Origin: Methanolobus vulcani
GTDB taxonomy: Archaea; Halobacteriota; Methanosarcinia; Methanosarcinales; Methanosarcinaceae
NCBI RefSeq assembly: GCF_900100715.1
Contig: NZ_FNCA01000006.1
Location: 152,058 to 192,057, forward strand
Reading direction: 5' to 3'
DNA length: 40,000 nt
Part shown: positions 8,108 through 28,266 of the stretch, one piece after another
Layout of the letters: each line of letters begins with the position of its first letter
How positions within the stretch are numbered: position 1 is the first letter of the stretch
Position numbers and translations under genes: made by a program
Notes under the pieces: model-generated
Databases searched by the model: none
Told to the model about the DNA's origin: nothing
The model's input: only the letters and a program-made list of their open reading frames with translations

Positions 8108-8332
8108 TTGTTCCCAAGTAAGAAAGTCCAGAAATTAGTTGGATCCAAGGTCCAGGTAGAGATGAAAGGTGACCTTCACCTTCTCGAAGGAACTCTGAAA
8201 AGTGCAGACGATTATATGAATCTCCATATGGTCGACACTATAGAGGTTGCAAACGGTGAGCGTCTGCGTTCCCTTGGTTCAGTCGTATTGCGTGGAAACA
8301 ATATCATTCTTGTTGTTCCAATGGAAGAATAA
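8108..8332 (+). CDS. Archaeal Sm-like (LSm) protein
   Basis: 74 aa. Sm1/Sm2-like pattern: VQVEMKGDLHLLEGTLKSADDYMNLHMVD...RSLGSVVLRGNNIILV. It has a TTG start with AGAGAGGA 6 nt upstream, and an in-frame TGA at 8090 limits any extension. Confidence 0.85.
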   Translation: MFPSKKVQKLVGSKVQVEMKGDLHLLEGTLKSADDYMNLHMVDTIEVANGERLRSLGSVVLRGNNIILVVPMEE

Positions 8333-8351
8333 ATTCTCAGTGGAAACTAGC

Positions 8352-8769: not shown

Positions 8770-8847
8770 GCTCCGGTAGTGTAGTCCGGCCAATCATTCC
8801 GGCCTTTCGAGCCGAAGACTCGGGTTCGAATCCCGGCCGGAGCACCA
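8770..8847 (+). tRNA. tRNA-Glu (anticodon UUC), CCA encoded
   Basis: Hand-folded cloverleaf. The acceptor GCTCCGG pairs with CCGGAGC. The T-arm is TCGGG-TTCGAAT-CCCGG. The anticodon arm is CCGGC-CTTTCGA-GCCGA, with TTC at positions 34-36. The 27:43 pair is a C-A mismatch. The 3' end is ACCA. Confidence 0.9.
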
Positions 8848-9403
8848 TACAATTTTTCTTGGAGTCCTTAACTAAAATCAAATAAATTTCTTTTCTAAAG
8901 GTAAATTCAATCTATTTTTGTGTTACGAAATAGAGTTTCCTATCATTTTATCTAAATAGAGATGCATAAAACTCTACGATAAAGAAATCTTCTTAAAGAG
9001 GTATTAAGTGGGGAGATATGTCTTATGGGGCAAATTTTTCCAATAATTCTTCAAAGTTTGCCCCATAAGTTCATGGTTCGATGAACCAATATTTGTCTTA
9101 TTCTGGTTTTTCATGCTTTATTTAATCTAAAATAATGCAAAAAAGAATAATAAGTCCAATTTCTGTCAATGTGCCTTTCATGGTTTGTTATCATTATTTA
9201 TCCATTCTGATACTTTGCATATAATGCAAAATATAAGATATTCTGGACAATCTTAAAGCACATGATCATGATCTCCAATTGTTATGTAGTTCTCTATTAT
9301 TTTTTTGGTATCTGTATAATGTTGGTAACATAGTGTATCACCAAGGTGATGATATCATAATTAGTTTTAAGAAGAGTGCTAAAAAAATTAATAAGAGAAT
9401 TGT

Positions 9404-9913
9404 TTATTCTCTTCTGGTAAATATGAATGCTAAACCAAGTATTGCAGCAATTGGTAGTGCGATTGTTGGAAATTCAGGTACTGCGCAGACATCCCTTGAT
9501 GCAGAAGCATAACAGGTTGCTGAACTTGTTCCTGTATAGATCTTCACTTCATAGACAGCTCCAACAGGAGCATTTGAATCAAGCTTTAGTGTGATAACGC
9601 CGACATCATCATATTCTGGATATGTTGTTGGTGTAAAATTGTGAGTAAAAGTGATGTTGATATCGTTCACTGATCCTCCACCTGTTACGTCCAGTATATC
9701 ATATCCATATGGAGTTGTTAACCCCATTGCAGAACTTGTCAGTTTTTCTGCATGATAACTCAAAATAACAGAACTTCCTGGCAACAGGTTAATGGGATTT
9801 GGTGCAAGTCCACTTGCTGTTTCATCATATATTCTTCCTGTATGGGTCAAGCTCGCATCAGCCAGTCCGGTGCAAATTGCTAAAGCTAACGCTAAAATTA
9901 TTAGTTTTTTCAT
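9404..9913 (-). CDS. Secreted protein with PEF-CTERM archaeosortase sorting signal
   Basis: N-terminal signal peptide MKKLIILALALAICTGLADA. The C-terminus PEFPTIALPIAAILGLAFIFTRRE is a PEF motif plus TM helix plus basic tail. Confidence 0.7.
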   Translation of the reverse strand: MKKLIILALALAICTGLADASLTHTGRIYDETASGLAPNPINLLPGSSVILSYHAEKLTSSAMGLTTPYGYDILDVTGGGSVNDINITFTHNFTPTTYPEYDDVGVITLKLDSNAPVGAVYEVKIYTGTSSATCYASASRDVCAVPEFPTIALPIAAILGLAFIFTRRE

Positions 9914-10256
9914 TGTTTACCCCCTGATATCTAATTTTTATTTGGTTTTTTCCCAAATGACTAAACATATGTTTCAAAGATATTTATCTTTTTTCACTTG
10001 CAAATTATTTATTCATAGAAAACTAAATATACATATAAATATCAGATATTTTCAGTGGCAATGGAGAATTAATACATTTTCACGAACGATAACTGTTTAT
10101 ATAATGATGCTATCATTCGAGCAATTATAAATACAGAATTTACGGTTTTACTTGTGGAATAAATGTCACAATTCGACTTACAAGACAATTTGTTTTCTTT
10201 GTAATTTTGTTCTGATATCATATTCACCGGGTTTTACATAGTAACTCGAGGTTCAC

Positions 10257-11765
10257 ATGTCATTCGATGATCTTAATCTGATTTACCCGCTACAGCGCGC
10301 ATTAAAAGAGGAAGGGTACACAACCCCTACACCCATACAGCAGCAGTCCATACCACATCTTCTTGGTGGAAAGGACATGATAGGTATTGCCCAGACAGGT
10401 ACTGGCAAAACCGCTTCTTTCATATTACCAATCCTGCACAACATGTCAGGTGCTCACAAAAAGACACGACGGGGAAGTCCACGTGTACTGGTGCTGGCAC
10501 CAACAAGAGAACTTGCAGCCCAGATAGGGGACAGTTTCTCAACATACGGAAAATACACTCAGTTCAAACACACGGTCATTTTTGGTGGTGTAGGTCAGAG
10601 CCCCCAGGTCAGAGCGATCTCAAAGGGTGTAGATTCGCTTATAGCAACACCTGGCCGCTTACTTGATCTGGTGGATCAGGGACATATAGATCTCTCTGGA
10701 GTCGAGTATTTCGTGCTTGATGAAGCAGACAGGATGCTTGATATGGGATTTGTCAAAGATGTCTATAAAATAGTTGAAATGCTGCCATACAAGAGACAGT
10801 CACTTTTCTTCTCAGCAACTATGTCTCATGATGTTTCAAAGCTTGCAAAGAAAATGCTGACAAATCCAGTAACTGTTGAAGTCACTCCTCAGGCAACGAC
10901 TGTAGAACTAATAGACCAGTTCATATTCTTTGTAGACTCGGAGAACAAGAACGAGTTGATACTTCAGCTTCTCAGAAGCAAACATCTGGAATGTGTCCTG
11001 ATCTTCGCCAGAACAAAACACAGGGCTAACAAAGTCGCTCAAATGCTTAACAAGAACAAGATCCCTGCTGATGCTATTCATGGAAACAAGTCCCAGACAC
11101 ACAGGACAAAAGCCCTCCAGGACTTCAGGTCAGGACAGCTTCGTGTACTGGTGGCAACAGATATAGCAGCCCGTGGAATTGATATTGATGACATTTCCCA
11201 CGTTATCAACTACGACCTGCCAAACATTCCTGAAAGCTATGTCCACCGCATTGGCCGTACAGCAAGAGCAGGGGCCGATGGAACAGCATTCTCATTTTGT
11301 GCTGCTGATGAGCGTGATTTCCTCCGTGAGATAGAGAAACTCATCAGAATGGAAATAGAAGTTGCAGAACATGACTATCATTCTGAGAAGGCAAAGAACG
11401 CCACCGGTGCCGATGCCAAACCTGCACCAAGGCAGCAGGGCAGGCCAAGAGGAAGTTCAGGTCATAAGAGAGGCCAGGGCAGAGGCAAAAAAGGAGAAGA
11501 CAAGGGCAGGAAAAGCGGCAGGAATAGCAGTAGTAGTGCCCGAAGTAATGGGAACAGCGGAAATAAGGGGACCAGTTCAGGTAATGATTCCGGTGCAAAG
11601 AGATCTACTAAGACCGGTGCAGGTAGTAGCAAGCCAAAAAGGAACATGAAAGCAAAGTCAATCCAATCCCACAATTCAAGGAGCAAGAGTTCTTCCACCC
11701 GAAATGATTCAGGTCCGGGAAAGAAAAAGAGCGGTGCACCTTCCAAATTTGGAAACAGAAGATAA
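10257..11765 (+). CDS. DEAD-box ATP-dependent RNA helicase with long basic low-complexity C-terminal tail
   Basis: Q motif GYTTPTPIQ, then AQTGTGKT, PTRELA, VLDEAD, SAT and HRIGRTARAG. Residues ~375-502 are rich in K/R/S/G/N. Confidence 0.9.
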   Translation: MSFDDLNLIYPLQRALKEEGYTTPTPIQQQSIPHLLGGKDMIGIAQTGTGKTASFILPILHNMSGAHKKTRRGSPRVLVLAPTRELAAQIGDSFSTYGKYTQFKHTVIFGGVGQSPQVRAISKGVDSLIATPGRLLDLVDQGHIDLSGVEYFVLDEADRMLDMGFVKDVYKIVEMLPYKRQSLFFSATMSHDVSKLAKKMLTNPVTVEVTPQATTVELIDQFIFFVDSENKNELILQLLRSKHLECVLIFARTKHRANKVAQMLNKNKIPADAIHGNKSQTHRTKALQDFRSGQLRVLVATDIAARGIDIDDISHVINYDLPNIPESYVHRIGRTARAGADGTAFSFCAADERDFLREIEKLIRMEIEVAEHDYHSEKAKNATGADAKPAPRQQGRPRGSSGHKRGQGRGKKGEDKGRKSGRNSSSSARSNGNSGNKGTSSGNDSGAKRSTKTGAGSSKPKRNMKAKSIQSHNSRSKSSSTRNDSGPGKKKSGAPSKFGNRR

Positions 11766-11769
11766 CCTT

Positions 11770-11797
11770 AGAACAGATTACATCCCTGTTCTTTTTT
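11770..11797 (+). terminator. Hairpin plus T-run downstream of the helicase gene
   Basis: AGAACAG-N9-CTGTTCT followed by TTTTTT, starting 5 nt after the stop codon. Confidence 0.55.
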
Positions 11798-11927
11798 AGT
11801 GGTAAGAAGTTCATAATGATCTCTGTGAACCGAAAACGCTAATATCTGCTACTGACTTTATACTGTCTCATCAGACTGTGATAAATGCAGTCCTGCAATG
11901 AATACTAAAAAACGCAAGTGACCTTAA

Positions 11928-12284
11928 ATGAAATATATTCTCCAGTTTGCCATCATCCTTGCAATCTGCTATCTTGGCGACCTGATCCACAGTTTCTTTC
12001 ACATCCCAGTTCCCGGAAATGTTCTGGGAATGGTCTTGCTTCTGGTACTTTTGCTTTCAGGTGTTGTCAAGCTCTCAATGATAGAGGATGTGAGCAATTT
12101 TCTGCTGAAACATCTGTCATTTTTCTTCATCCCGGCAGCAGTGGGGCTTATTACCTGCTTCACGGTGCTTGAAGGAAAGTGGACTGCGCTTTTTATAATT
12201 TCCGTTGTCTCAACATTTATCATTGCAGTTGTTACAGGTGCAACGGTACAGCTACTTATCAAAAGGAGGCAGTCCGTTGAGTGA
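11928..12284 (+). CDS. lrgA: CidA/LrgA family holin-like membrane protein
   Basis: 118 aa with 4 predicted TM segments. The sequence is typical of LrgA (HIPVPGNVLGMVLLLVLL...FFFIPAAVG). Confidence 0.8.
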   Translation: MKYILQFAIILAICYLGDLIHSFFHIPVPGNVLGMVLLLVLLLSGVVKLSMIEDVSNFLLKHLSFFFIPAAVGLITCFTVLEGKWTALFIISVVSTFIIAVVTGATVQLLIKRRQSVE

Positions 12285-12981
12285 GTTTATATCACAGATT
12301 GTGCAGTCTCCTGTATTTGGCATCGGAATTTCTCTGGTGACATTCTACGCAGGTGCCCAGCTCTACAAAAAGACAGGCTCACCCCTGATGAACCCGCTGG
12401 TTCTCAGCATGTTTATGATAATAGCTCTGCTTCTGAGTTTTCACATCAGTTTTGATGACTATAATAATGGCGGACAGTTCATATCATTCTTCCTTGGGCC
12501 TGCAACTGTTATTCTTGCTGTTCCATTGTACCGGAAGATAAGCCTGCTGAAGGAGAATGTGGTTCCGATAATTGCCGGAATAAGCATTGGTTCTGCAGCA
12601 GGTATTGCCAGCATCATCGTTATGTGCAAGATGTTCGGACTTGATGAGATACTCAGTGTTTCCATGATCCCAAAATCTGTTACAACACCGATTGGAATTG
12701 AAATATCCAACCAGCTTGGTGGGTTGCCTTCCGTAACAGTAGCTGCAATAGTTTTCACAGGTATTGCAGGTGTGTTGCTCGGACCAATGGTATGTAAATT
12801 GTTCAAAATTGAAGATAAAGTGGCTCTTGGTGTGGCTATCGGTACTTCGTCCCATGCTCTTGGAACCACAAAGGCTGTTGAGATTGGTGAGACCGAAGGT
12901 GCAATGAGTGGGCTTGCGATCGGAATTGCAGGATTGGTAACTGTGTTCCTGGCTCCTCTGCTGGCAAAACTACTGTTGTAG
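12277..12981 (+). CDS. lrgB: LrgB/CidB family membrane protein
   Basis: The track ORF is 12205..12981. A TTG at 12277 overlaps the lrgA stop and has AAAGGAGG ~9 nt upstream. LrgB-like motifs are present: PKSVTTPIG and GTSSHALGTTKA. Confidence 0.8.
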   Translation: MSEFISQIVQSPVFGIGISLVTFYAGAQLYKKTGSPLMNPLVLSMFMIIALLLSFHISFDDYNNGGQFISFFLGPATVILAVPLYRKISLLKENVVPIIAGISIGSAAGIASIIVMCKMFGLDEILSVSMIPKSVTTPIGIEISNQLGGLPSVTVAAIVFTGIAGVLLGPMVCKLFKIEDKVALGVAIGTSSHALGTTKAVEIGETEGAMSGLAIGIAGLVTVFLAPLLAKLLL

Positions 12982-13735: not shown

Positions 13736-13782
13736 TTCTTTTCCACTCCTCCTTTATTCAATTTCATTTTCCGGCTATTCAA

Positions 13783-13814
13783 AAATAAATAAATAAATAA
13801 ATAAATAAATAAAT
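13783..13814. repeat. (AAAT)8 tetranucleotide microsatellite
   Basis: Eight perfect units read directly, 48-79 nt upstream of the minus-strand start at 13735. Confidence 0.95.
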
Positions 13815-13978
13815 TACAGGCCGGAATATTACTTTCATTATAGAATTGATTTTAAAAAATCATATTTTTTTTGAATCAAAGATACTTAACATAATTCCTG
13901 ATTTTAAAAGCAATATCAGGTTGAAAAAGTATGAATCAAATCGAACATAAAAAAAGAAAAATGAAATTTTAGTACTTC

Positions 13979-14718: not shown

Positions 14719-15093
14719 TTTTATAACTCCCTTATCTTCCTATTACTATATATTTTACAATTTGAGCCACATCGCTCTCAGTTAGTGTAACTTCTATTAC
14801 AGGCCGAGCCATTCCCTTTTACTCGCCTGATTTCAAATTTGAGCCATATGGCACATCCCACTTCCTTATATATTTGTGTTAATGGTATTTAAGGTATTTT
14901 AAATATTATTTTTTTTATATTTGGGAGTTAAGAACTCTTCCCATATCTCTCTTATTAAATACAATTTAATTATATATGCTATATAATTATTTTGATGGAA
15001 AAAAAGATTGGCTTGTAGAAAGGCGATTGAAGACTTTATATTATCAACTATTTCTACATGACCTAAAAATATTTTAATTATTTTGATTGTTTA

Positions 15094-16350: not shown

Positions 16351-16491
16351 GTTTATTATAAACTTTCCCGATATATAAATAAATATTTGTTATGATGGAT
16401 ATTGATTTAGAGTAATTTATCATATCAGAAAAAAGATTCAAGAAAAACAGAGAAAACAGGTAATGTTGGTCACAAGGTGTTGAAGGTTATT

Positions 16492-16647
16492 ACGGGATCG
16501 GGTTTTATCCCGTCCTGAATTTCGCTTCATTTCAGCTATGCGTTGGTGAAACCGATTTAGGAATCTGGTTTTGCCACCTCCCGACTTTTGTTTCAACCAA
16601 ATCACGCGTAAATGAAGTTTTGTTACTGAACGGTTATTATTCCGTTC
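16492..16647. ncRNA. Candidate structured RNA / nested-helix element (strand and identity undetermined)
   Basis: Hairpin 16492-16513 has a 7-bp stem. Helix 16524-16532 pairs with 16610-16618 (8 WC pairs plus one G-T). It encloses helix 16540-16552/16590-16607 (13 bp with bulges), which in turn encloses a small hairpin at 16553-16568. Hairpin 16628-16647 has a 6-bp stem. GC is locally higher than in the flanks. Confidence 0.3.
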
Positions 16648-17126
16648 TAAACGCTGCCCCATTTTACAGCTTACTCCCTTATGACCAATTCTTATTATGT
16701 ACTTAATGGTATAAGCAACTGGCGGTCATATAACTGTGAATTATTTTATGAGAATAATTCAAAACTCAATGTCATCCCTCTTAATTTTAATTATGATTGG
16801 GAGGAGATGGGATTTTCTAAAAGTGATTTGCATTATATCATTTCAGAATGGTGATTCTGATAATCATTTGATATGAATACTTATGTAAAGGGTAGGCTGA
16901 AGATATAGAAATTTCAAGGAGCAGGTTTCAGGGAATCAAATAAAAAATTAGAGTAATGGAAATCTCAATTTTAATACTCCGATGGTGAGGAGGTTAAGAT
17001 GATAATTTTAAAATTCATAGAATTAGCTAAATACAAATAAAAAACTTAAAATGTAATAAGTTTATAAATAGTACTATTATTTTTACCACATAAGTAAAAG
17101 GAATCAAAATTAACGATTGGGTGCAT

Positions 17127-18197
17127 ATGATGGATTTTATTGATGAAGTAAAAGCCTTGGCTGCAAGGATACCAAACCTTAAAGACAGCATCATGACAGA
17201 GGAAGCAACAAAAAATGCATTGGTTATGCCGATGATTAACATACTTGGGTACAATGTCTTTGATCCAACCGAAGTTGTTCCAGAGTTCACAGCAGATCAC
17301 GGCACAAAGAAGGGCGAAAAAGTAGATTATGCCATTATTAAAGCCGGAGAACCTATTATGTTAATAGAATGCAAAACACTTGGTTCTGATTTGAATACCA
17401 ATCATGCATCGCAGTTGTTCAGATACTTCAATGTTACAAGTGCCAAGGTAGGAATTCTCACAAACGGTACGACATATCGCTTTTTTTCAGATTTAGAAGA
17501 TGCAAATAAGATGGATGACAAACCATTCTTAGAGATAGACCTCCTTAATCTGAAAGATGAACAAGTAGAAGAATTAAAACGATTTAAAAAGGAACGTTTT
17601 GATGTGTGTGAACTTGAATCTGTGGCAAATGAATTGAAGTACACTAAAGAAATCAAGCAGATTCTTTTGTCTGAGATGAACAAACCATCTGAGGATTTTG
17701 TTAAGTTTTTTGCTAATTTGGTGTATAATGGCAGGATAACTCCTAACAAGCGAGACCAATTTACTGCAATTACAAAAAAGGCTTTCAATCAGTTTATTAA
17801 TGATAGAATAAATGAAAGACTCAAAATAGCAATGTCAAATAAGAATCACAGTGATGAGGTTGATGTTGAAGAAGATATTGTTGAACCTGTTGATGATGGA
17901 ATTGTCACTACAGAAGAGGAAATTGAAGGCTATCACATTGTAAAAGCAATCCTTCGTGAAACAATTGCCCCAGACAGAATAGTTATGAGGGATACAAAAA
18001 GTTATTGTGGCATTCTCTTGGATGACAATAACAGAAAGCCAATATGCAGGCTTCGATTTAACAGTGCTCAAAAATATGTTGGCATACTTGACGACGATCG
18101 TAAAGAAATAAAAACTCCGATTAACAATTTAAATGATATTTATGAGTTGACAGCAAAAATTAAATTAGTTGTTGAAAAAATGGAATCTGATAGTTAA
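17127..18197 (+). CDS. PD-(D/E)xK nuclease-fold protein, type I restriction enzyme HsdR N-terminal-domain-like (HSDR_N_2-type), stand-alone
   Basis: Core GEKVDYAIIKAGEPIMLIECK (D-x13-E-C-K) followed by ASQLFRY (QxxxY). The C-terminal region YHIVKAILRE...SYCGILLDDNNRKPICRLRFN recurs, from memory, in stand-alone HsdR_N-domain proteins. The track start at 17121 is a GTG, with ATGs at 17127 and 17130. Confidence 0.6.
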   Translation: MMDFIDEVKALAARIPNLKDSIMTEEATKNALVMPMINILGYNVFDPTEVVPEFTADHGTKKGEKVDYAIIKAGEPIMLIECKTLGSDLNTNHASQLFRYFNVTSAKVGILTNGTTYRFFSDLEDANKMDDKPFLEIDLLNLKDEQVEELKRFKKERFDVCELESVANELKYTKEIKQILLSEMNKPSEDFVKFFANLVYNGRITPNKRDQFTAITKKAFNQFINDRINERLKIAMSNKNHSDEVDVEEDIVEPVDDGIVTTEEEIEGYHIVKAILRETIAPDRIVMRDTKSYCGILLDDNNRKPICRLRFNSAQKYVGILDDDRKEIKTPINNLNDIYELTAKIKLVVEKMESDS

Positions 18198-18378
18198 TAC
18201 AATAAGTAATATGGCATGGATAAATTATTTGCTATATCATGTTTTCCACAGGAAGTTAAAGGACATTTTGAATTGCTAGAAGACAGTTTTTAATTAAGAA
18301 TCATACTCATTTTTTTCATTTTTATTTAAAAGCAAATTTTGAATGGTTATATTTATACTTTCCATAATTTAAACTTAA

Positions 18379-18409
18379 AAGTTCCGTTTTTTGACGTTAC
18401 CTATTACCC
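18379..18409 (+). repeat. 31-nt repeat, copy 1: AAGTTCCGTTTTTTGACGTTACCTATTACCC
   Basis: Matches 27101-27131 at 30/31 positions in the same orientation. The leading TAAAAGTTCCGTTTTT (18376-18391) also recurs exactly at 27048-27063. Confidence 0.9.
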
Positions 18410-18450
18410 CCAGAAACGGTGAGATTGAATCAATTTGAATTATTAATCTT

Positions 18451-18477
18451 AAGAAAAAATAGAAGGTTTTTACCTTC
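18451..18477 (-). terminator. Hairpin plus T-run at the ppsA 3' end
   Basis: On the minus strand: GAAGGT-AAAA-ACCTTC followed by TATTTTTTCTT. The hairpin includes the stop codon. Confidence 0.5.
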
Positions 18478-20878
18478 CAATCTTCTTTTCAACCTCAAGC
18501 ACCTTCAGCGCGATCTTCATCACAGAATCCGGGTTCAGCGAGATAGAATCAATCCCTTCCCTCACCAGAAACTCTGCGAACTCCGGGAAATCGCTGGGAG
18601 CCTGGCCGCAGAGGCCACTGTGCTTATTGTTTCGTTTTGCGCCCTGAACAGCCATTGACACTATCTTCTTTACAGCCTCGTCGCGTTCATCGAAAGTGGA
18701 CGCAAGGATCTCGGAATCACGGTCAACGCCAAGGGTCAGTTGTGTGAGGTCATTGGAACCAATGGAAAAACCATCGAAGTACTGGCTGAACTCGTCTATG
18801 AGCAGGACATTGCTTGGGATCTCGGTCATCATGTATACCTGAAGACCGTTCTCTCCCCTGACAAGATCGTTCTTTTTCATCTCCTCCAGCACCTTTTCAG
18901 CTTCCTCAATGCGACGACAGAACGGGATCATAAGTATCAGGTTTGTAAGTCCCATCTCATCTCTCACTTTTTTCATGGCCTTACACTCAAGAGCAAAGCC
19001 CTCACGGTAGCGTTCATCGTAATAACGTGAAGCACCTCTGAATCCCAGCATTGGGTTGTTCTCTTCAAGCTCAAAGTACTCTCCACCGATCAGGGTTTCA
19101 TATTCATTGGACTTGAAATCGCTCATACGCACAACCACAGGCTTCGGGTGGAATGATGCTGTGATTGTTGCAACTCCCTGAGCAAGCTTCTCCACGAAGA
19201 AATCTGCTTTATTCTCATACCTGCCGGTCAGTTTGTCTATCTCCTCAAGTACTTCTTCATCCTCAATCTTCTCAGGATGGATAAGTGCCATAGGATGCAC
19301 CTTGATGTAGCTTGTGATGATGAATTCCAGCCTTGCCAGTCCGATACCGTCATTCGGTATCATGGACAGCGCAAAAGCTTCCTCGGGGTTTCCAAGGTTC
19401 ATCATGATCTCGGTCTTTGTTTTCTCAATTCCTTCCAGTTCAACGGTTTCGATATGGAAAGGCAGTATTCCTTCATACACTCTGCCTGCATCCCCTTCTG
19501 CACAACTCACCGTAACATCCATGTCATTTTTCAGTATTTCTGTGGCATCCTCAGCACCAACGACCGCAGGAATTCCAAGTTCACGGCTCACAATAGCAGC
19601 ATGACATGTCCTACCGCCCTTGTTTGTAATAATGGCAGCCGCCTTCTTCATAACAGGTTCCCAGTCAGGAGTTGTGGTGTCCGCTACAAGTATCTCCCCG
19701 GCATTAAATTCATTTAATTGTGAAACATCAGGAATAACATGTACTTTTCCGGTTGCAATCTTTGCACCGACACTCCTTCCTGTAACAATGACATCTGAGC
19801 TATCATCAAGATAATAGGTCTCTAAAACATCCTTTCTCTTCAACGACTGTACCGTCTCTGGTCTCGCCTGGACTATGAACAGCTCACCAGTCTCACCATC
19901 CTTTGCCCACTCAATGTCCATCGGGACATGTTTTCCTCTCTTCTGTGAGTAATGGTCTTCAATAGTCATTGCAAACTTTGCCAGTTGCAGCACCTCTTCA
20001 TCATTAATACAGTACTGTTTCCTTTCAGCTTCAGGAACATCAACATTACGTGTAAGCACACGGGAATCTCCGCGACCGTAGATCATCTTGATCTCTTTGC
20101 TTCCCTTCTGCTTTTTGATGATAGGTTTGAAGTTATCCTTTAGTGTTGGTTTGAAAACATAAAACTCGTCAGGATTTACAAGTCCCTGAACCACATTTTC
20201 CCCAAGTCCGTAGGCTCCGGTGATAAACACAACATTCTCAAAACCGCTTTCAGTATCAATTGTGAATATAACACCACTTGAAGCAAGGTCTGAGCGAACC
20301 ATTTTCATAACACCAATGGAAAGACCCACTTTGAAGTGATCAAAACCGTTATTCTCTCTGTATGAAATGGCCCTGTCAGTGAAAAGTGATGCAAAACACC
20401 GGCTGCATGCATCTTTTAGTGAATGGTAGCCATGAATATTCAGGTATGTTTCCTGCTGCCCTGCAAATGATGCATTGGGCAGATCCTCGGCAGTTGCAGA
20501 ACTACGAACCGCCACATCAGTATCTTCCCCGTACTGCTCACAAAGCTTATCATAAGCTGTTTTTATCTCATCCCACAAGTCATCAGGGATTCCGGCATCA
20601 AGTATAAGATTCCTTGCTTTCTTTCCTCTTTTTGCAAGGTCTGTAACATCATCTATATCAAGACCTTCAAGTGTCTTCTTAAGTTCCTCAAGCACACCTG
20701 CAGATTTTAAAACATGCCAGTATGCGTCCGCAGTAATGGCAAAACCATTTGGGATTTTAATATCCTTATCTGTCAGTTCCCTGTACATCTCTCCAAGGGA
20801 TGCATTTTTGCCTCCCACTAAAGGTACGTCATCTATACTAATTTCCTTAAACCAGCTAACATATTTGTTGCCTGTCAT
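18470..20878 (-). CDS. ppsA: Phosphoenolpyruvate synthase (pyruvate, water dikinase)
   Basis: 802 aa. The N-terminus VSWFKEISIDDVPLVGGKNASLGEM is typical. It has the phosphohistidine motif GGRTCHAAIVSRELGIPAVVG and a C-terminal PEP-utilising TIM-barrel domain. Confidence 0.95.
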   Translation of the reverse strand: MTGNKYVSWFKEISIDDVPLVGGKNASLGEMYRELTDKDIKIPNGFAITADAYWHVLKSAGVLEELKKTLEGLDIDDVTDLAKRGKKARNLILDAGIPDDLWDEIKTAYDKLCEQYGEDTDVAVRSSATAEDLPNASFAGQQETYLNIHGYHSLKDACSRCFASLFTDRAISYRENNGFDHFKVGLSIGVMKMVRSDLASSGVIFTIDTESGFENVVFITGAYGLGENVVQGLVNPDEFYVFKPTLKDNFKPIIKKQKGSKEIKMIYGRGDSRVLTRNVDVPEAERKQYCINDEEVLQLAKFAMTIEDHYSQKRGKHVPMDIEWAKDGETGELFIVQARPETVQSLKRKDVLETYYLDDSSDVIVTGRSVGAKIATGKVHVIPDVSQLNEFNAGEILVADTTTPDWEPVMKKAAAIITNKGGRTCHAAIVSRELGIPAVVGAEDATEILKNDMDVTVSCAEGDAGRVYEGILPFHIETVELEGIEKTKTEIMMNLGNPEEAFALSMIPNDGIGLARLEFIITSYIKVHPMALIHPEKIEDEEVLEEIDKLTGRYENKADFFVEKLAQGVATITASFHPKPVVVRMSDFKSNEYETLIGGEYFELEENNPMLGFRGASRYYDERYREGFALECKAMKKVRDEMGLTNLILMIPFCRRIEEAEKVLEEMKKNDLVRGENGLQVYMMTEIPSNVLLIDEFSQYFDGFSIGSNDLTQLTLGVDRDSEILASTFDERDEAVKKIVSMAVQGAKRNNKHSGLCGQAPSDFPEFAEFLVREGIDSISLNPDSVMKIALKVLEVEKKIGR

Positions 20879-21054
20879 TATATTCCCACACTACACCTAA
20901 TTTTCTTTAAGTGTAAGTAGTATTGTCTTTGAAGGCTATTATTATTTATGGAAGATAAAGAGTAAAATCGGATGTTTGTACAACAATACTATAAACCAGA
21001 GTGTCAATTGAACGGCAGGTCACCATCAATTAAAAACAAGTTCAGGAGAAAAAC

Positions 21055-22080
21055 ATGGGCACACAAATAGGCACACTACTCACCAAAAACCCGATAACCT
21101 ACGAGGAACTTTCTGGAAAAATAATAGCAATCGACGCATACAACACTATCTATCAGTTCCTGAGTGCCATTCGTCAGCGTGACGGTTCAATGCTCACAGA
21201 TTCCTCAGGTAATCCTGTATCACATATCACAGGATTATTTTCAAGAACCAGCAGACTCAGAGAAGCGAATATCAAACCTGTTTTCATCTTTGACGGCAAA
21301 CCACCGGAGATGAAAAAAGATACCCTTGAAAAACGCAAGGTATGCAAGGAAAATGCAGCCATCAACTATGAGATTGCAAAGGATGAAGGCAACCTTGAGG
21401 ATATGAAAAAATATGCCCAGGCAACGTCCAGAATAACTCCTCAGATTCTTGATGATTCTAAAAGGTTGCTTGAACTCATGGGAATCCCTTGGATGCAGGC
21501 AGAATCTGAAGCAGAGGCACAGGCATCTTATATGGTTTCATGTGGAGATGTGGATTATGTAGGTTCACAGGATTATGATGTTTTCCTGTTCGGAGCCGAG
21601 AATGTCATTCGCAATCTTGGAAGCACGGGAAAGCGAAAGTTACCAGGACAGAAGAAGTACATTACAAAAACACCCGAACACATCTCACTTGCGTCTTGTC
21701 TTGAAGAATTGGAACTAAGCCGTGAACAGTTGATAGACCTTGCAATCTGCATCGGTACTGATTTTAACGAAGGAATGCACCGCGTGGGTGCAAAGACAGC
21801 TCTGAAACTTATCAAAAAACACGGTGATATCGAGACACTTATCAAAGGAGAGGACAGGGATATCCGTGCATGTGCTCCGCTTGAAGAAATAAGGGAATTC
21901 TTCATGAATCCTCCCGTTACAAAGGATTACAGTTTCAAGTGGAAAAAACCTGATTCAGATTCATTGTTCGATTATCTTGTAAGTGACAGGGATTTCTCTG
22001 AAAAGCAGGTGTTGAAGAATATTCAGGTGCTGGAGGAGAGGGCTGCTTCTGAGTGCCAGTCTTGTTTGGGTGACTGGTAA
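21055..22080 (+). CDS. fen: Flap endonuclease 1 (FEN-1)
   Basis: The N-terminus reads LSGKIIAIDAYNTIYQFLSAIRQRDGSMLTDSSGNPVSHITGLFSRT. The XPG-N/XPG-I layout and the 341-aa length also fit. Confidence 0.92.
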   Translation: MGTQIGTLLTKNPITYEELSGKIIAIDAYNTIYQFLSAIRQRDGSMLTDSSGNPVSHITGLFSRTSRLREANIKPVFIFDGKPPEMKKDTLEKRKVCKENAAINYEIAKDEGNLEDMKKYAQATSRITPQILDDSKRLLELMGIPWMQAESEAEAQASYMVSCGDVDYVGSQDYDVFLFGAENVIRNLGSTGKRKLPGQKKYITKTPEHISLASCLEELELSREQLIDLAICIGTDFNEGMHRVGAKTALKLIKKHGDIETLIKGEDRDIRACAPLEEIREFFMNPPVTKDYSFKWKKPDSDSLFDYLVSDRDFSEKQVLKNIQVLEERAASECQSCLGDW

Positions 22081-22159
22081 AATTGAGATACTCTAACAAC
22101 ATGAATCACGTAGCTTGAAATATCATGCCAAACATAAATTTAAAGTGTGGGGAATTACC

Positions 22160-22390
22160 ATGGCAATGAAAGAAAATAAGTTCGATGAGAATATTGACGG
22201 TGCTTATTATGTTGATGCTGATTGTATAGGTTGCAACCTTTGCGTGAGCAATTCACCTCAAAACTTCAAGATGAAGGATGATGATTCCACAGCTTACGTA
22301 TTCAAGCAACCGGAAAATGAAAAGGAGAAGCAAGCTTGTGAGAATGCTCTGGCTGAGTGTCCTGTAGATGCCATTGGAAACGATGGTTGA
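22160..22390 (+). CDS. Small 4Fe-4S ferredoxin
   Basis: CIGCNLC ... CP cluster motif (YYVDADCIGCNLCVSNSP...ALAECPVDAI). The ATG at 22160 (MAMKEN) is preferred over the upstream track start. Confidence 0.75.
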   Translation: MAMKENKFDENIDGAYYVDADCIGCNLCVSNSPQNFKMKDDDSTAYVFKQPENEKEKQACENALAECPVDAIGNDG

Positions 22391-22476
22391 GACTGGAAAA
22401 TCGGCTCTTTCACAGTTCTGTTAACTGACTTGAAGAACTACATTGGTCTAAAAACTCTGGTGTAGTTCACCTATTA

Positions 22477-22656
22477 TCATTTCAATATTTTTAGTGCATC
22501 TCTGCAGGCTGCAACGGCAGGAGCACCAGATGTAATGAATATGATATCCATGGTTTCCATGATTTCTTCCTTGGTTGCACTGCTCTTGAGCACACTCTGC
22601 ATTTGCATAACAGCACACCTTTCATATTGTTTAGGTGCAACTACAGCAAGAGCCAT
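22477..22656 (-). pseudogene. Short AhpD/carboxymuconolactone-decarboxylase-like ORF (59 aa), possibly a gene remnant
   Basis: My translation: [59 protein letters not shown]. It resembles the C-terminal half of CMD-domain proteins (..ATKEEI.E.......GGPA...A..AL), but the CxxC motif is degenerate. Confidence 0.3.
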
Positions 22657-22785
22657 TAGTATTTTTGTATGAGTAGACCAACAGAATTGATAAACCTAAG
22701 ACATTCAGATTCTCATTAATTCCAAAAATCTCTGCAAGCGAAGTATATAGATATACTGCAAAACATACATACTAAGGGTGACAAA

Positions 22786-24405
22786 ATGTTCTGCTATCAG
22801 TGTGAAGAAACAATGAACGGGGAAGGCTGTACAAAGAACGGCATGTGCGGTAAGAAAGGTGATGTTGCAGATCTTCAGGATAATCTAATCTATGTACTTA
22901 AGAGCATTGCATTCTACAATCAGAAAGCAAGAAAGGCAAACATTTCTGAGAACAGCACTGATAATTTTATGCTTGATGCATTGTTCTCAACCATAACTAA
23001 TACCGATTTCAGAGCCAGTGGAATTCAGGAGCGTATCGACAGAGGATTTCATATACAGAATGAGATCAGGCAAAAACTTCTGGAAAACAATGCACTTGAT
23101 GAGAACGATCTGCCCGAAATCGCAACTTTGACCCCTGAGAACCTCAGTGACAGGAATACAGGTATACTTGCAACCGAGGATGAAGATATACGGTCATTGA
23201 GGGAACTGTTGATCTTTGGCATCAAAGGAATTGCAGCATATGGGCATCATGCCATGATGCTTGGTAATTACAATAAGAAGATTAATTCATTTGTAGAAGA
23301 AGGACTTGTAGCAACTACGGATGACAGCCTGAATGATAAGGACCTCATCTCATTGGTCTTGAAATGCGGAGAAAAAGGTTTTGATGTAATGGCAGACCTG
23401 GACAGGGTAAATACAGTAGCCTTTGGAAACCCTGAACCCACACAGGTCAATATCGGAACAAGAGATAATCCGGGAATCCTTGTAAGCGGTCATGACCTGA
23501 AGGACCTGAAACAACTATTGGACCAGACCGAAGGAACAGGCGTGGATGTCTATACTCATGGTGAAATGTTGCCTGCAAACTCATATCCTGAATTTAAGAA
23601 ATATGAACATCTGGTAGGCAACTATGGCGGCTCATGGTGGCACCAGAAGCAGGAATTCGAGAGTTTTAACGGACCGATATTACTTACAAGCAACTGCATA
23701 GTTCCTCCAAGGGAGAGCTACATTGACAGGTTATACACAACAGGCTCTGTAGGCTATGATGGTGCCAAACATATAATAGCTAAAGACGGCCAGAAAGATT
23801 TCTCTGCACTTATCAAGCAGGCGAAGACCTGCGAAGCTCCGGTACAACTGGAAGAAGGTACCATCATGGGCGGTTTTGCTTACAACTCCGTGTTATCCAA
23901 TGCAGACAAAATTGTTGATGCTGTCAAAACCGGAAAGATAAAGAAATTCATTGTCATGGCAGGCTGTGACGGACGTCACAAGGACAGGCAGTACTACACG
24001 GATTTCGCTGAGGCATTGCCTGAAGATACAGTTATTCTTACTGCCGGATGTGCAAAATATCGCTACAACAAACTCAATCTTGGTGACATTGATGGAATTC
24101 CAAGGGTATTGGATGCAGGACAGTGTAATGATTCATTCTCACTTATCGTTATTGCACAGGGTCTTATGGCAAGACTTGGATTTACAGATGTTAACGAGGC
24201 ACCGATTTCATACAATATCGCGTGGTACGAACAAAAGGCGGTCCTTGTATTGCTTACCCTTCTGAGACTTGAAATACAGAATATTACACTTGGCCCGACA
24301 CTTCCAGCCTTCGTCTCACCAAATGTCCTTAAGGTACTTGTGGAAAAGTTCAATATCACACCGAACACGACCGTGGAAGAAGATATGGAAAGACTTTTAA
24401 AATGA
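22786..24405 (+). CDS. hcp: Hybrid cluster protein (hydroxylamine reductase)
   Basis: N-terminus [24 protein letters not shown], 539 aa, with a family-typical C-terminus. Confidence 0.92.
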
Positions 24406-24459
24406 AACTCCTCCATTCTCAATGAACACGGAATAGGCACACGTGTAAATGGGTCTGAA

Positions 24460-25605
24460 TTGCATATTCGGGAGGGTAGACATACCACAGATATAGAACC
24501 GAAAAGGTATGTATTTTCCCCCCAGAAAACAGACATAGACCACATCATTGTTTATGGCAGAAATGGAAATCTTATTCTTGATGCTGTTAGATGGTTGATT
24601 AAACATAATGTTCAGATCACTTTCCTTGATTGGAACGGTAAAATTCTAAGCACCTTACAACCTCCTGAAACTACCAATGTAAAGACTAAGTTTGCTCAGT
24701 ATCATGCTTTTGAGGATGATGAAAGCAGAATAACGATAGCAAGGAAGTTCATTGAAGCCAAGTTTGATAAATCCATTGTAGTTATGGACTATCTTAAACA
24801 ACGGTATCCTGAAATTGATTTTGATTTCTCAGAGGATATTGAAAAATTGAAATCTGCTAATTCTATCAAGGAAATTATGGGTATTGAAGGCGGAGTTGCT
24901 TGGAAATACTGGAACGAGTTCAACAAAGCTATTCCAGGTGAATATGATTTTTGTTCAAGGATAGACCAATACAGGAGAGCAACAGGAGCAGGAGATAAAG
25001 TTAATGTCATGCTTAACTATGGTTATGCTCTTCTTGAAGCTGAATGCCTGAGAGCCATTAATACAGCAGGTCTTGATGCTCATGTAGGTTTTTTACATGA
25101 GATGAATCCAAGCAAGAACAGTCTTGCTTATGATCTCCAAGAGCCTTTCAGATTCCTTGTTGATATGGCTGTAATCAACCTTATTGAGTCCAATAAGATG
25201 GATAATAACGACTTTATCAGGACTGAGAGCTATTCACTCAGGCTCAAACCTTCAGGAGCTAAGAAGGTTACTGAGGAGTTTAATAATTTGATGAACAAGA
25301 AAGTACCCTACAAAAAACAATCTGTTATGTGGAGCTATGCCTTATTATTGAAAACTAGGGAGCTTGCTCAGTATCTTGTTGGTAAAAGGAAGACTATTGA
25401 TTTCATTAAGCCTGCTTATAATGTTGAAAGGCAGGATTCAGATGATATTCGGCAGAAAATACTGAATATTTCTTACTCTGATTGGAAGAAGATGGGATTC
25501 TCAAAAGGTACACTCCATTACATGAAAAAGAATGCTGAAGCTGATAAGCCATTTACAATGAACGCTCATGTAAGGGAAAGGTTGGAGATGTGGGAAGAGT
25601 GTTAA
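24460..25605 (+). CDS. cas1: Stand-alone Cas1-family integrase (casposase-like, with C-terminal HTH-like extension)
   Basis: Canonical Cas1 core: MGIEGG (E143), NVMLNYGYALLEAE, GLDAHVGFLHE (H213), SLAYDLQEPFRFLVD (D225/E228). An extra ~55-aa C-terminal tail reads ISYSDWKKMGFSKGTLHYMKKN. The only in-frame start is the TTG at 24460. The frame stays open upstream to the hcp TGA. Confidence 0.85.
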   Translation: MHIREGRHTTDIEPKRYVFSPQKTDIDHIIVYGRNGNLILDAVRWLIKHNVQITFLDWNGKILSTLQPPETTNVKTKFAQYHAFEDDESRITIARKFIEAKFDKSIVVMDYLKQRYPEIDFDFSEDIEKLKSANSIKEIMGIEGGVAWKYWNEFNKAIPGEYDFCSRIDQYRRATGAGDKVNVMLNYGYALLEAECLRAINTAGLDAHVGFLHEMNPSKNSLAYDLQEPFRFLVDMAVINLIESNKMDNNDFIRTESYSLRLKPSGAKKVTEEFNNLMNKKVPYKKQSVMWSYALLLKTRELAQYLVGKRKTIDFIKPAYNVERQDSDDIRQKILNISYSDWKKMGFSKGTLHYMKKNAEADKPFTMNAHVRERLEMWEEC

Positions 25606-25634
25606 TTTTTATCTTGAGAGTCAAATTATGAAGG

Positions 25635-26867
25635 TTATTTTGGAATATCAAAAGCTAGTAACGTTAAATACAGTTTTCTATTTTTATCATTAGGATGATT
25701 AAATATGAACCTAAATCCAGTTTCAGTGTCATAAGCAATTTCTTTTTCAAAGTTGGGATGTTCCTTTACTATATTAGGTATCTGGGTAAGAACATTTGTG
25801 AAATTTTTGTTCCGGTTGAATATAAAAATAGCTGTTTTTGTATCCCTCCAACTTAAGTAATTAAGAATCTGGTCAATTGTATCCTTTAATATTGCAGCAC
25901 CTCCCCAAAATTTACATTCTGCAATGAATATATTTTTTCCCCCTTCTCTAATTAATATATCCGTTTTTCCCTCATAATTAAACGTCTCACCCGTTGCAGC
26001 ACCTTCATAATGTCCGTTTAATTGAACAAGAAAATGTTGCCTTATAGCTTCTTCACCTAAATTCTTAAATTCGCTTGGACTTCGTTCCATGACCATTGTC
26101 ATATTTTGAACCACATTTAGTATATATTCATAATTTTCCATGCTTAATACTGGTTCTGGCTTAAACGGTTGAGTAGAAGCTGAAGGTTTAGAGATAATTG
26201 TTTTTCTTTTTGAAGGAACGCTATAAGTCTTAGGTGTTCCAGGTATTTCTCTTAAAGGAAAACCAAGTTCATAAGCAAGATTACTATCCTTAAGCAGCTT
26301 TTCTCTTCTAGTATTTATTTGGGATTCTATTTCTCTATCTAACCTTTGATTGAAATTTTTAATATCTGTTTCCACCCAAGTTAACCATTTTTCGATATCA
26401 GACAATATTTTATCAAATTCTACCCTAATATTACCTATTTCTAAATCGACTCCTTCTAAAGTTACTAATAATTCTTGATTTCGAACTTCACCTTTTGGAG
26501 GATTATAATTTAAAATAGAAGGCTGATATTTAAATAAACTTGAATCTCCTGTAAAAGGAATATAAAATGTAAACTTTGTTCCAGTCAGATAATATGATTT
26601 ACTCCCATCTAAGAAAACTCTTTTTGAATCCTGACTTACATCTATCTCAACTTCTTCGTGTTGAATATGTATATTTTCTTTATCTATAACAGGCAACTCA
26701 AATGAGTAACTATCAACTAAATGTTCAGTATAGTCTTGCATGTTTACATTTAAAATGTAATTCTTATCTTCACTCTTAATTTTATTTATTGCATAACTAA
26801 GTCTGTCATTAAGAAAAGATCGTAATTCTCCATCGTTAAATAAATAATCATATATGAACTCGTACAT
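25635..26867 (-). CDS. Hypothetical protein with C-terminal PD-(D/E)xK nuclease-like core
   Basis: 410 aa. C-terminal core ETFNYEGKTDILIREGGKNIFIAECKFWGG (D303-x13-E317-C-K319), then IDQILNY (QxxxY). The N-terminal ~230 aa are unrecognised and include a helical or coiled stretch (aa ~150-200). Very AT-rich. Confidence 0.6.
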   Translation of the reverse strand: MYEFIYDYLFNDGELRSFLNDRLSYAINKIKSEDKNYILNVNMQDYTEHLVDSYSFELPVIDKENIHIQHEEVEIDVSQDSKRVFLDGSKSYYLTGTKFTFYIPFTGDSSLFKYQPSILNYNPPKGEVRNQELLVTLEGVDLEIGNIRVEFDKILSDIEKWLTWVETDIKNFNQRLDREIESQINTRREKLLKDSNLAYELGFPLREIPGTPKTYSVPSKRKTIISKPSASTQPFKPEPVLSMENYEYILNVVQNMTMVMERSPSEFKNLGEEAIRQHFLVQLNGHYEGAATGETFNYEGKTDILIREGGKNIFIAECKFWGGAAILKDTIDQILNYLSWRDTKTAIFIFNRNKNFTNVLTQIPNIVKEHPNFEKEIAYDTETGFRFIFNHPNDKNRKLYLTLLAFDIPK

Positions 26868-27047
26868 AAAATTGCCTCGTATTTAATAACTTTAGTAAAG
26901 ATAAATTAGTTCATTAATTTACTTTTAACTGTAAACATGGATTCATTCTTAATAAACTTATATTTAGAGATTTTAGTAAAATAGAAACATTCAAAATATC
27001 AATTCTATTTTTTATTGTTCATGATAAATGAACAGTATTGTTTTTAG

Positions 27048-27063
27048 TAAAAGTTCCGTTTTT
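27048..27063 (+). repeat. Partial extra copy of the 31-nt repeat's 5' part (TAAAAGTTCCGTTTTT)
   Basis: Identical to 18376-18391; lies 38 nt upstream of full copy 2. Confidence 0.8.
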
Positions 27064-27100
27064 CTTCTCAAATTTGCATAATAGTTAAAATTTGTAATAG

Positions 27101-27131
27101 AAGTTCGGTTTTTTGACGTTACCTATTACCC
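27101..27131 (+). repeat. 31-nt repeat, copy 2: AAGTTCGGTTTTTTGACGTTACCTATTACCC
   Basis: Matches 18379-18409 at 30/31 positions in the same orientation. Confidence 0.9.
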
Positions 27132-27267
27132 AAAATTAATTTGCTATAGGTATAATTCGAACCAAAGAGCTACGTTGATTTTATTTCATAATCTGCAAAG
27201 GCATTGTGAGAAACAGCATAATCATGTAGAAATTGCATTTTCATCTATCTTACTCTTCAAAAAAATC

Positions 27268-28266
27268 TCACCGGTACACCATATTCAAAAGCTTCAGCGG
27301 ATCCTTGCTTCTGTTGAACAAATGATATGCCAGTGGATATGCCAGAGGGCCCAGTATCTCAAAGAGTTTCCGGTTTCTTTGTGAGTGCTTCAATTTCTGG
27401 TGGAGATTCTCTCTTATCAGATTATCATAGGACTCTCCGGTCATGATACTTCTTGCAGCGAAGTTTGCACTCTGGAAAGCATATCTCATTCCAAATCCCC
27501 AGAGGTAATCCTGAAGGCCGCCTGCCTCGCCTATGAGCATTGCACCGTTGTCATCGTGGAGAGTTTTTCTGATCTCAAAGTATCCATAGCCTCCGAACTT
27601 CCTGCCGGAGTTTACTTCATCAGGGTCGTAATAGTCTGAAAAATAGTCAATGGTGTTACTTAGAAAACTCTCAGAATCCCGCAGGTTCTTATTGTCAAAA
27701 ACCGTTGCAATGGTAGCTTCTCCATTCTTGATGAGCAGATATGAGTAGAAACCTTTTGCGATATCATTACCAAAAGCCATGTGGTAATTATCAGGACTGT
27801 TAGTTTGGAATTTGATTCCTTTTGCAAACATGTTCCCTTTTTCCGGGCCAGTTGCAATCACATGAATTGGTGTATTCTCGTCAGGTTTAATTCCATAGTG
27901 AATATTTACACCGAGATCCTTTGCCTGCTCAAACAGACATGTATCAAGGCAATCATCAGCCGTGCCACGTTTTACTAAATAACAGGCATTATCGCCTGTG
28001 AGAGTGCGTATCTTATCAGAATAATGAAGGTCAAGTTCAGACACGGGGACATAATCAAATGACAGGTCAATTCCGAACGATTTTAGTTCATCAAGCACAT
28101 CAGTTTCTTCGGACCAGTTCTCTATTCCCTGCCAGTCACTGTTAAACCTTTTACCAGTGACTTGCTTTTTCTCATATATATTGACATTATAACCATTCTT
28201 GCTAAGGATGATGGCACATGTAAGACCGCTTATTCCACCACCAAGAATGTTTATTTCCTTATTCAT
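27268..28266 (-). CDS. FAD/NAD(P)-binding oxidoreductase (geranylgeranyl-reductase-like flavoprotein)
   Basis: N-terminal Rossmann motif INILGGGISGLTCAIILSKNGYNVNIYEK; 332 aa. Confidence 0.65.
   Translation of the reverse strand: MNKEINILGGGISGLTCAIILSKNGYNVNIYEKKQVTGKRFNSDWQGIENWSEETDVLDELKSFGIDLSFDYVPVSELDLHYSDKIRTLTGDNACYLVKRGTADDCLDTCLFEQAKDLGVNIHYGIKPDENTPIHVIATGPEKGNMFAKGIKFQTNSPDNYHMAFGNDIAKGFYSYLLIKNGEATIATVFDNKNLRDSESFLSNTIDYFSDYYDPDEVNSGRKFGGYGYFEIRKTLHDDNGAMLIGEAGGLQDYLWGFGMRYAFQSANFAARSIMTGESYDNLIRENLHQKLKHSQRNRKLFEILGPLAYPLAYHLFNRSKDPLKLLNMVYR

Follow-up and report, generated by a model that had tools for sequence, protein, structure and literature searches.

A 31-nt repeat occurs twice in a 40,000-nt stretch of the Methanolobus vulcani genome, which is referred to here as the window (C15:152058-192057). 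The repeat is very probably the terminal inverted repeat (TIR) of the family-2 casposons of Methanolobus, and the two window copies would be the ends of decayed elements. Casposons are self-synthesizing transposons moved by a Cas1-type integrase, the casposase. The assignment is based on related genomes, in which the repeat forms inverted pairs. Four of these pairs bracket Cas1, with a family-B polymerase in the one element annotated in full; three are flanked by target duplications and two are located at tRNA-Leu 3' ends. The genome studied (G000; 2.95 Mb, 40% G+C, 20 contigs, 99.98% complete) was compared with its closest species (G004) and with the relatives G003, G006, G013 and G043. Fetched loci carry L-numbers, L001 being the 20 kb directly upstream of the window.

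The search pattern AAGTTCSGTTTTTTGACGTTACCTATTACCC matches the window exactly twice, at 18379-18409 (copy 1) and 27101-27131 (copy 2). Both matches are on the plus strand and are identical at 30 of 31 positions, with a single C/G difference; the dinucleotide-preserving shuffles of the window contained none (0/100). The 16-nt sequence TAAAAGTTCCGTTTTT at 27048-27063 is identical to positions 18376-18391. Copy 1 is located at a rise in GC content from 0.28 to 0.50 at 18.5 kb, beside the stop codon of the minus-strand ppsA gene (18470-20878). Copy 2 is located at a rise from 0.25 to 0.42 at about 27.3 kb, beside the stop codon of a minus-strand FAD/NAD oxidoreductase gene (27268-28266). A first-pass annotation of the window had described the two repeats, the exact 16-nt partial copy and the position of both repeats at the transition from an AT-rich island to the 3' end of a core minus-strand gene, and the pattern search, the shuffles and the GC profile confirm these observations.

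Allowing up to 6 mismatches, the whole genome contains four copies, every one on contig C15. The two copies outside the window are on the minus strand, at C15:140858 (3 mismatches) and C15:145761 (6 mismatches). A profile search, with a TIR profile built from 37 ends of related genomes, adds about four degenerate copies at C9:139002, C9:136916 (inner part only), C9:210266 and C12:66301. The 31-mer is a low-copy sequence, with about 8 copies in 2.95 Mb, and not the high-copy generic intergenic repeat against which the first-pass annotation had proposed a genome-wide count.

A 91-nt query around copy 2 finds matches in nearly every genome of the genus, with few per genome. These matches often form inverted pairs that are 5-10 kb apart, and such pairs are present in five genomes. 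Five pairs were fetched for analysis, four of which bracket a Cas1 with 82-91% protein identity to the window open reading frame (ORF) at 24460-25605. The L023 element of M. bombayensis DSM 7082, the only one annotated in full by Pfam, encodes an 893-aa protein-primed family-B DNA polymerase (PolB; 8802-11483; Pfam DNA_pol_B_2, 4e-11), Cas1 (5533-6735), a small nuclease-like ORF and a 436-aa winged helix-turn-helix (wHTH) protein (11496-12806). A 290-aa ORF upstream of the L023 Cas1 gives a weak HEAT_2 match below the cut-off (E = 0.0015); no HEAT-type ORF of this kind is found in the window remnants.

When the left and right ends of the intact elements are aligned, the inverted repeat extends as far as ...CCTATTACCC, and a direct duplication of 14-15 bp begins beyond it. 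The duplicated target reads CGCATCATTTACCT in L023, CTATGTAGCTTTTG(G) in L025 and GACGCGTAGGTGCG in L026. In L024 and L026, a tRNA-Leu(UAA) gene adjoins one TIR and the duplication begins in the last 4 nt of the tRNA. The 31-nt TIR of MetMaz-C1, GGGATATAGGTAACTCAAAAAAACGCAACGC, is identical to the reverse complement of the window repeat, GGGTAATAGGTAACGTCAAAAAAC[G/C]GAACTT, at 22-23 of 31 positions, with 23/31 for copy 1. The two sequences are equal in length and have a common GGG terminus.

The first-pass annotation had left a choice between a shared element terminus and a shared insertion target, and both parts of this reading are borne out. The 31-mer corresponds to a casposon TIR, with a break in homology at its 3' end, and the approximately 44 nt beyond it resemble a tRNA-Leu 3' end, in register between the copies. 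Its argument against an element of an untranslated region also holds. The reading of the repeat as a terminus stands, whereas the link to the Cas1 gene located 1.5 kb from the repeat was not made and casposons were not named.

Two right-end remnants with different cargo genes

Remnant 1 extends from at most 16726 to 18409 and comprises a Cas1 C-terminal pseudogene, an HsdR_N nuclease gene and a TIR. The Cas1 relic (16726-16905, plus strand) contains stop codons and was detected by tblastn with the L023 Cas1, of which it covers residues 338-396 (30% identity over 60 aa, E = 8e-5). By blastn, it is 75% identical to the Cas1 C-terminal fragments of L051 and L059. Between the relic and the TIR lies a cargo gene for a 358-aa nuclease of the HsdR_N type with a PD-(D/E)xK core (17121-18197, plus strand; Pfam HSDR_N, E = 3.4e-15). 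The gene is absent from the orthologous remnant of G004, in which the TIR likewise lies beside ppsA. Its product has a homologue with 87% amino acid identity in L075 (9255-10506, Methanolobus sp. Soudan_27), and the gene is thus associated with casposon ends in two configurations, that of the window and that of L075. The TIR at 18379-18409 (plus strand), assigned by the TIR searches and the match to MetMaz-C1, represents a right end with its terminus at 18409. It is followed by a target-side flank at 18410-18453, which consists of 14 nt that resemble a target-site duplication (TSD) and about 30 nt similar to a tRNA-Leu 3' end.

Remnant 2, from 24401 to 27131, comprises a nearly full Cas1 gene with a broken 5' end, a gene for the defence candidate PDC-S54, a subterminal repeat and a TIR. 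The Cas1-solo gene (24401-25605, plus strand; Pfam Cas_Cas1, 2.8e-67; TIGR00287, 5.3e-65) encodes a putative casposase. The 410-aa cargo protein, encoded on the minus strand at 25635-26867, matches the PADLOC profile PDLC05036 along its entire length (E = 1.9e-158; residues 6-409 aligned to positions 4-407 of the 410 in the profile) and has no match in Pfam or NCBIfam. The subterminal repeat at 27048-27063 (plus strand) repeats the inner TIR half (AGTTCCGTTTTT) in direct orientation and lies about 50 nt inward of the terminal copy. The TIR at 27101-27131 (plus strand) is again a right end, with its terminus at 27131 given by the TIR searches and by the homology break with G004. The adjoining flank at 27132-27175 contains the TSD-like sequence AAAATTAATTTGCT and 30 nt similar to a tRNA-Leu 3' end.

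The two islands had been described in the first-pass annotation as nuclease islands with strikingly similar nuclease cores, which does not hold. The cargo proteins share 27% identity over 60 aa in a BLASTP comparison (E = 0.017), a weak similarity that points to no more than a common PD-(D/E)xK motif. We therefore reject the two cargo nucleases as copies of one gene, and the islands are not copies of one nuclease element. They are right-end remnants with different cargo genes.

Inward of all four strong TIR copies of the genome, at a distance of 1.2-2.8 kb, lies a Cas1 gene or fragment, and its orientation with respect to the TIR is the same in each case. Each of the four TIRs is thus the Cas1-proximal, or right, end of a casposon that has no left TIR and no replication genes. 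Cas1 C-terminal fragments are present in L001 at 11629-11833, 14970-15038 and 16994-17077, as well as on contigs C12, C14 and C9, and C15 has no fewer than five Cas1 relics in a stretch of 48 kb. The single Cas2 of the genome is located on C11, beside a distant CRISPR-type Cas1. There is no Cas2 or CRISPR near the window Cas1, whose neighbours are hcp and the PDC-S54 gene.

A left TIR between FEN1 and hcp (22082-22786) was found neither by mismatch search nor by profile search. No casposon PolB was detected in the genome by tblastn with all ORFs of the five elements, or with PF03175. The window thus holds remnants and not complete family-2 members, with one surviving end per element and no PolB. 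The absence of PolB from the genome and of a left end from either remnant indicates that both are very probably immobile now. The minus-strand copies at C15:140858 and C15:145761 were considered as partner ends of a composite element of 25-38 kb, and were rejected on the basis of the syntenic core genes that lie between and of their own Cas1 fragments inward.

In the remnant that ends with the TIR at C15:140858, the cargo slot separating this TIR from a Cas1 fragment contains a 5TM-LYT/PAS histidine kinase that is split into ORFs of 140 and 670 aa (L001 9106-11594, C15:141163-143651). In the window, a 151-aa ORF (8247-8702) beside a tRNA-Glu gene (8770-8847) is conserved at 92-94% nucleotide identity in several Methanolobus genomes. 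Over 50 aa (match at 8391-8540) it is 68% identical to the 436-aa wHTH protein of L023, and could represent a casposon gene that was domesticated or persists as a relic next to a tRNA.

The layout of the window remnants is recurrent. In 27 distinct ends, a distance of 0.6-3.7 kb separates the TIR from the 3' end of Cas1, which is a full gene or a fragment, and this space is occupied by one to three variable ORFs. The ORFs sampled from this slot encode a NERD+UvrD protein (PADLOC 4.6e-82), PIN_12, a FilR1-like regulator and DUF2971; others give a weak HEPN match or a weak DpnII-like match, and several have no match at all. The stretch from the Cas1 3' end to the TIR appears to behave as a variable cargo slot, often with nuclease or defence-type genes. 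We collected 41 distinct ends from G000 and its relatives, and a subterminal copy of AGTTCCGTTTTT is located 35-70 nt inside the TIR in 8 of them, compared to 0-1 in control windows of the same width. The 16-nt partial copy of the window is thus a recurrent feature of casposon ends, and the subterminal repeat may serve as a second protein-binding site.

The same regularity could be explained without decay, if the arrangement of Cas1 C-terminal fragment, cargo, single TIR and tRNA-Leu-like sequence were a one-ended, non-autonomous cargo cassette that is installed or exchanged by outside casposases. Such a cassette would account for the shared layout of the 27 ends with their variable ORFs, for the many loci that retain only Cas1 residues from about 270-350 to 381, and for the different cargo at orthologous sites of G000 and G004. 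Single-ended integration has also been seen in vitro (PMC6977970). However, the start residue of the Cas1 fragments ranges from 268 to 349, a spread that is more in line with random deletion end-points than with an element of fixed boundary. Intact elements carry the same slot beside a full Cas1, and solo-TIR remnants are documented as decay products in Methanosarcina mazei (PMC4779613). We consider a cassette of this kind highly unlikely and read the window remnants as decayed casposons.

Remnant boundaries and a mosaic Cas1

The closest species defines the boundary of remnant 2. G000 and G004 are about 95% identical from the TIR terminus to the oxidoreductase gene and about 70% identical in the TIR itself. 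Their interiors are unrelated, with 1.5 kb inside the TIR replaced in G004 by 3.7 kb of unrelated DNA. The break in homology is located exactly at 27131|27132 (...ACCC|), the 3' end of the 31-mer, so that the comparison with related genomes suggested in the first-pass annotation places the boundary of this island at the repeat and not elsewhere. G043 has a further-decayed TIR at the same place.

At the position of remnant 1, G043 contains about 100 bp from the equivalent of window position 14911 or so to the ppsA stop codon and is without the stretch at about 14.93-18.45 kb. No target duplication could be defined from this empty site, since the intergenic DNA is too diverged. A segment of the window at 16424-16816 is conserved beside ppsA at 74-86% nucleotide identity in G004, G006, G003 and G013, and also occurs in genomes where no TIR was found. 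The species also differ in the arrangement of the interval containing remnant 2, with an inverted hcp in G006 (L091 5630-7294) and no hcp between FEN1 and the oxidoreductase gene in G043 (L088 4165-8763).

The window Cas1 has 89% amino acid identity to the Cas1 of the intact L023 casposon. In relatives the gene starts with ATGAAAATGCTTCTTCTCAATGG (MKMLLLNGHG). The corresponding ATG of the window gene, at 24401, overlaps the TGA stop codon of hcp (prismane). Compared to four relatives, the window gene has one extra base before CTCAATG, resulting in a +1 frameshift within the first 7 or so codons. The Cas1 frame is open from the hcp stop codon, and because the extra base follows the ATG at 24401, it contains no ATG and its first start is a TTG at 24460. 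G004 shares the junction between hcp and Cas1 and has lost 660 bp inside its Cas1.

Two segments of the gene have different affinities. Positions 24401-24550 are 89% identical to G004 and 61-68% identical to the Cas1 genes of intact casposons. Positions 24551-25363 are 82-93% identical to intact casposon Cas1 genes (87-93% for L023, L025 and L024), and the part that can still be aligned in G004 (24551-24703) is 86% identical to it. By these identities, the window Cas1 is a mosaic with a breakpoint near 24550, and we infer that a newer casposon recombined there with an old resident Cas1.

This proposed renewal of remnant 2 would postdate the divergence of the genome from the closest species. 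A newer casposon would land at the same tRNA-like target as the resident remnant, giving a tandem insertion. Recombination between the two Cas1 copies near 24550 would then delete everything between them and install a new cargo gene together with a near-consensus TIR. Tandem insertion followed by Cas1-Cas1 recombination would explain why PolB and the left TIR have been lost, why the cargo is new and the TIR close to the consensus, and why the 5' end is old and frameshifted.

A broader role is possible, which we put forward tentatively and regard as doubtful. The right ends of Methanolobus casposons could be docking platforms, open to renewal, for cargo that consists of a single defence or nuclease gene. 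At the tRNA-Leu-like target beside an old remnant, new casposons would land repeatedly, and Cas1-Cas1 recombination would remove the replication module, leaving a fresh cargo gene and a TIR. Repeated landings and recombination of this kind would build up small casposon-derived defence islets, scattered along the chromosome.

Probable tRNA-Leu-like targets of the casposon ends

Casposon biochemistry from M. mazei provides a reference for the flanks. Bound to the 31-nt end, the casposase links the 3'-OH of this end to the target, a 14-bp site beginning with CGCA and about 30 bp of a tRNA-Leu 3' end, yielding a 14-bp duplication. The 31-mer TIR and a target composed of the TSD and 30 bp of tRNA-Leu are sufficient in vitro (PMC6977970). 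Intergenic target sites that resemble tRNA-Leu have also been described for M. mazei (PMC4779613, PMC10359463).

Beyond ...ACCC, the TIR copies of G000 stay similar for about 44 nt, which is the span of the TSD and 30 bp that the M. mazei casposase needs. The flank of copy 2 matches that of C15:140858 at 28/44 positions and that of C15:145761 at 26/44, compared to a baseline of 11.3 +/- 3.0 positions for random 44-mers of the genome. G000 has five tRNA-Leu genes, whose target sites (10 nt, TGCG, and the acceptor and T-arm) we used as the genuine reference. In register with these, the four flanks are identical at 17-26 of 44 positions, the flank of copy 2 at 19-25. A T-loop-like ATTCGAA is present at 27155-27161 in the flank of copy 2, and ATTTGAA at 18433-18439 in that of copy 1. 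Among the 41 distinct ends, a T-loop-like ATTYGAA is found 20-27 nt past the terminus in 22, compared to 2 of 123 control offsets. The flank of copy 2 is conserved in G004 and partly in G043. With the left ends lost, neither window end can have a second copy of a target duplication; the 14 nt past the termini end in TGAG and TGCT, where a CGCA site would be expected to read TGCG on this strand. The flanks are best read as tRNA-Leu-like target sites, judging from this in-register similarity; the similarity between copies would extend about 44 nt past the terminus because each remnant abuts sequence that resembles a tRNA-Leu 3' end.

The genome also contains genuine tRNA-Leu sites in both states. 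In the interval C12:66206-66322, a tRNA-Leu(UAA) gene is followed by CGCATGTCTTTTTA (CGCA and 10 nt) and a degenerate TIR, which corresponds to an occupied site; Cas1 fragments are located 8-10 kb away. The tRNA-Leu(UAG) gene at C11:20194-20281 is the empty counterpart of the casposon site of M. bombayensis, and the sequence downstream of it matches the right flank of L023. In other genomes, several casposons have a TIR of a second type, GGGATATATACAAGGCGAAAAAAGTGTACG, immediately after their TSD (TIR flanks of L019, L031, L032, L034 and L035). In L031 it is accompanied by a second Cas1, with 72% DNA identity between its gene and the window Cas1 gene. Second-type TIRs beside the first are tandem arrays of two casposon lineages.

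A structured RNA at the repeat was considered and rejected. Of 74 nt folded per copy, one of the four copies folds better than shuffled sequences (z = -2.5), and an apparent compensatory change between two of the copies is better explained by the shared tRNA-like target. The 31-mer could also be a generic intergenic repeat, such as a miniature inverted-repeat transposable element (MITE), or a regulatory or terminator element, unrelated to transposon ends. It contains CGTTTTTTG, a run of six T that could act as an archaeal T-run terminator, and both window copies lie between convergent genes. This is extremely unlikely given the low copy number, the inverted pairs and target duplications around Cas1 in relatives, with PolB in the annotated element, and the homology to a biochemically validated TIR. 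A regulatory role is further opposed by the Rfam search, which returned tRNA-Glu only and no match to the repeat, and by folding scores of z = -2.5, -0.2, +0.5 and -1.5 against shuffles. That the 31-mer is the attachment site of a tyrosine-integrase element, with a duplicated tRNA 3' end as attL and attR, has next to no probability: the two window copies do form direct repeats, with flanks similar to tRNA-Leu 3' ends, but the tRNA-like part is outside the repeat, the core genes between the copies (ppsA, FEN1) are syntenic in relatives, the window ORFs scanned against Pfam include no integrase, and intact relatives have inverted repeats and 14-bp duplications.

Several points weigh against the reading of the window copies as ends of decayed casposons, and against parts of their proposed history. 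Neither copy shows a left TIR or a target duplication, and the casposon identity relies on intact elements elsewhere. The flank of copy 1 resembles tRNA-Leu weakly (17-20/44) and is the weakest of the four. The L023 PolB protein gave no match in G000, in a search without a positive control. The L075 homologue of the HsdR_N protein is located outside the casposon remnant, on the far side of its tRNA-Leu-like flank, so that the gene may have reached its slot by another route. Finally, the recombination model for remnant 2 is drawn from segment identities, and gene conversion without tandem insertion would give the same pattern.

Apart from these features, the window contains two (AAAT)n microsatellite runs in AT-rich intergenic DNA, at 7861-7913 and 13775-13827, which are 5.9 kb apart.

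Comparison with known casposons and CRISPR systems

The closest known systems are MetMaz-C1 and the other family-2 casposons of M. mazei (Krupovic et al. 2014, 2016; Hickman et al. 2020; PMC10359463). MetMaz-C1 has a 31-nt TIR with a 14-nt TSD (PMC10359463), and the 31-mer TIR was the substrate of Hickman et al. The Methanolobus repeat has the same length, the GGG terminus, the AGGTAAC core and the A/T run. The elements of Methanolobus relatives share the 14-bp target duplication beginning with CGCA, and the annotated intact element combines Cas1-solo with a protein-primed PolB. As in M. mazei, the sites are tRNA-Leu 3' ends or tRNA-Leu-like intergenic sequences, in both orientations and with tandem arrays. 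Differences can be observed as well. The host genus is Methanolobus, the TIR differs at 8-9 positions, and the genome contains no complete element, with neither PolB nor a left end, while the window Cas1 is frameshifted at its 5' end and is a recombinant.

A more distant parallel is the CRISPR leader-repeat junction. There too, integration by the Cas1 family occurs beside a recognised upstream sequence and a short target is duplicated, the TSD corresponding to the repeat and the 30 bp of tRNA-Leu to the leader (PMC6977970). In contrast to CRISPR, there is no array, Cas2 or spacers here, and what is inserted is an element of several kb with TIRs.

For Methanosarcina, solo-TIR remnants, the 14-bp TSD with CGCA, both tRNA-Leu orientations, tandem arrays and the 31-nt TIR have been published (PMC4779613, PMC6977970, PMC10359463). 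In M. mazei, isolated TIRs mark former casposon sites beside a CGCA-type motif, in some genomes without any full-length casposon (PMC4779613). The remnants described here are larger than these solo-TIRs, retaining the TIR, the cargo and a Cas1 3' fragment or nearly full Cas1. All of them keep the Cas1-proximal end, and one has signs of renewal by recombination. The portions of PMC4779613, PMC6977970 and PMC10359463 that were read do not state the regular retention of the Cas1-proximal end and cargo, the mosaic Cas1 or the defence-type cargo, a pattern partly tested here on about 40 ends. The layout of Cas1 3' end, cargo (PDC-S54, HsdR_N, NERD+UvrD, PIN) and TIR, together with the mosaic Cas1, thus goes slightly beyond the published picture.

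If the repeat is a casposon TIR, one known mechanism explains the repeat, the two AT-rich islands, the orphan Cas1 beside hcp and the similarity of the 44-nt flanks. The in-register flanks are natural variants of the casposase target, composed of the TSD and 30 bp, and could inform studies of target recognition. Together, these observations extend the picture of solo-TIRs and tRNA-Leu-like targets from M. mazei to Methanolobus.

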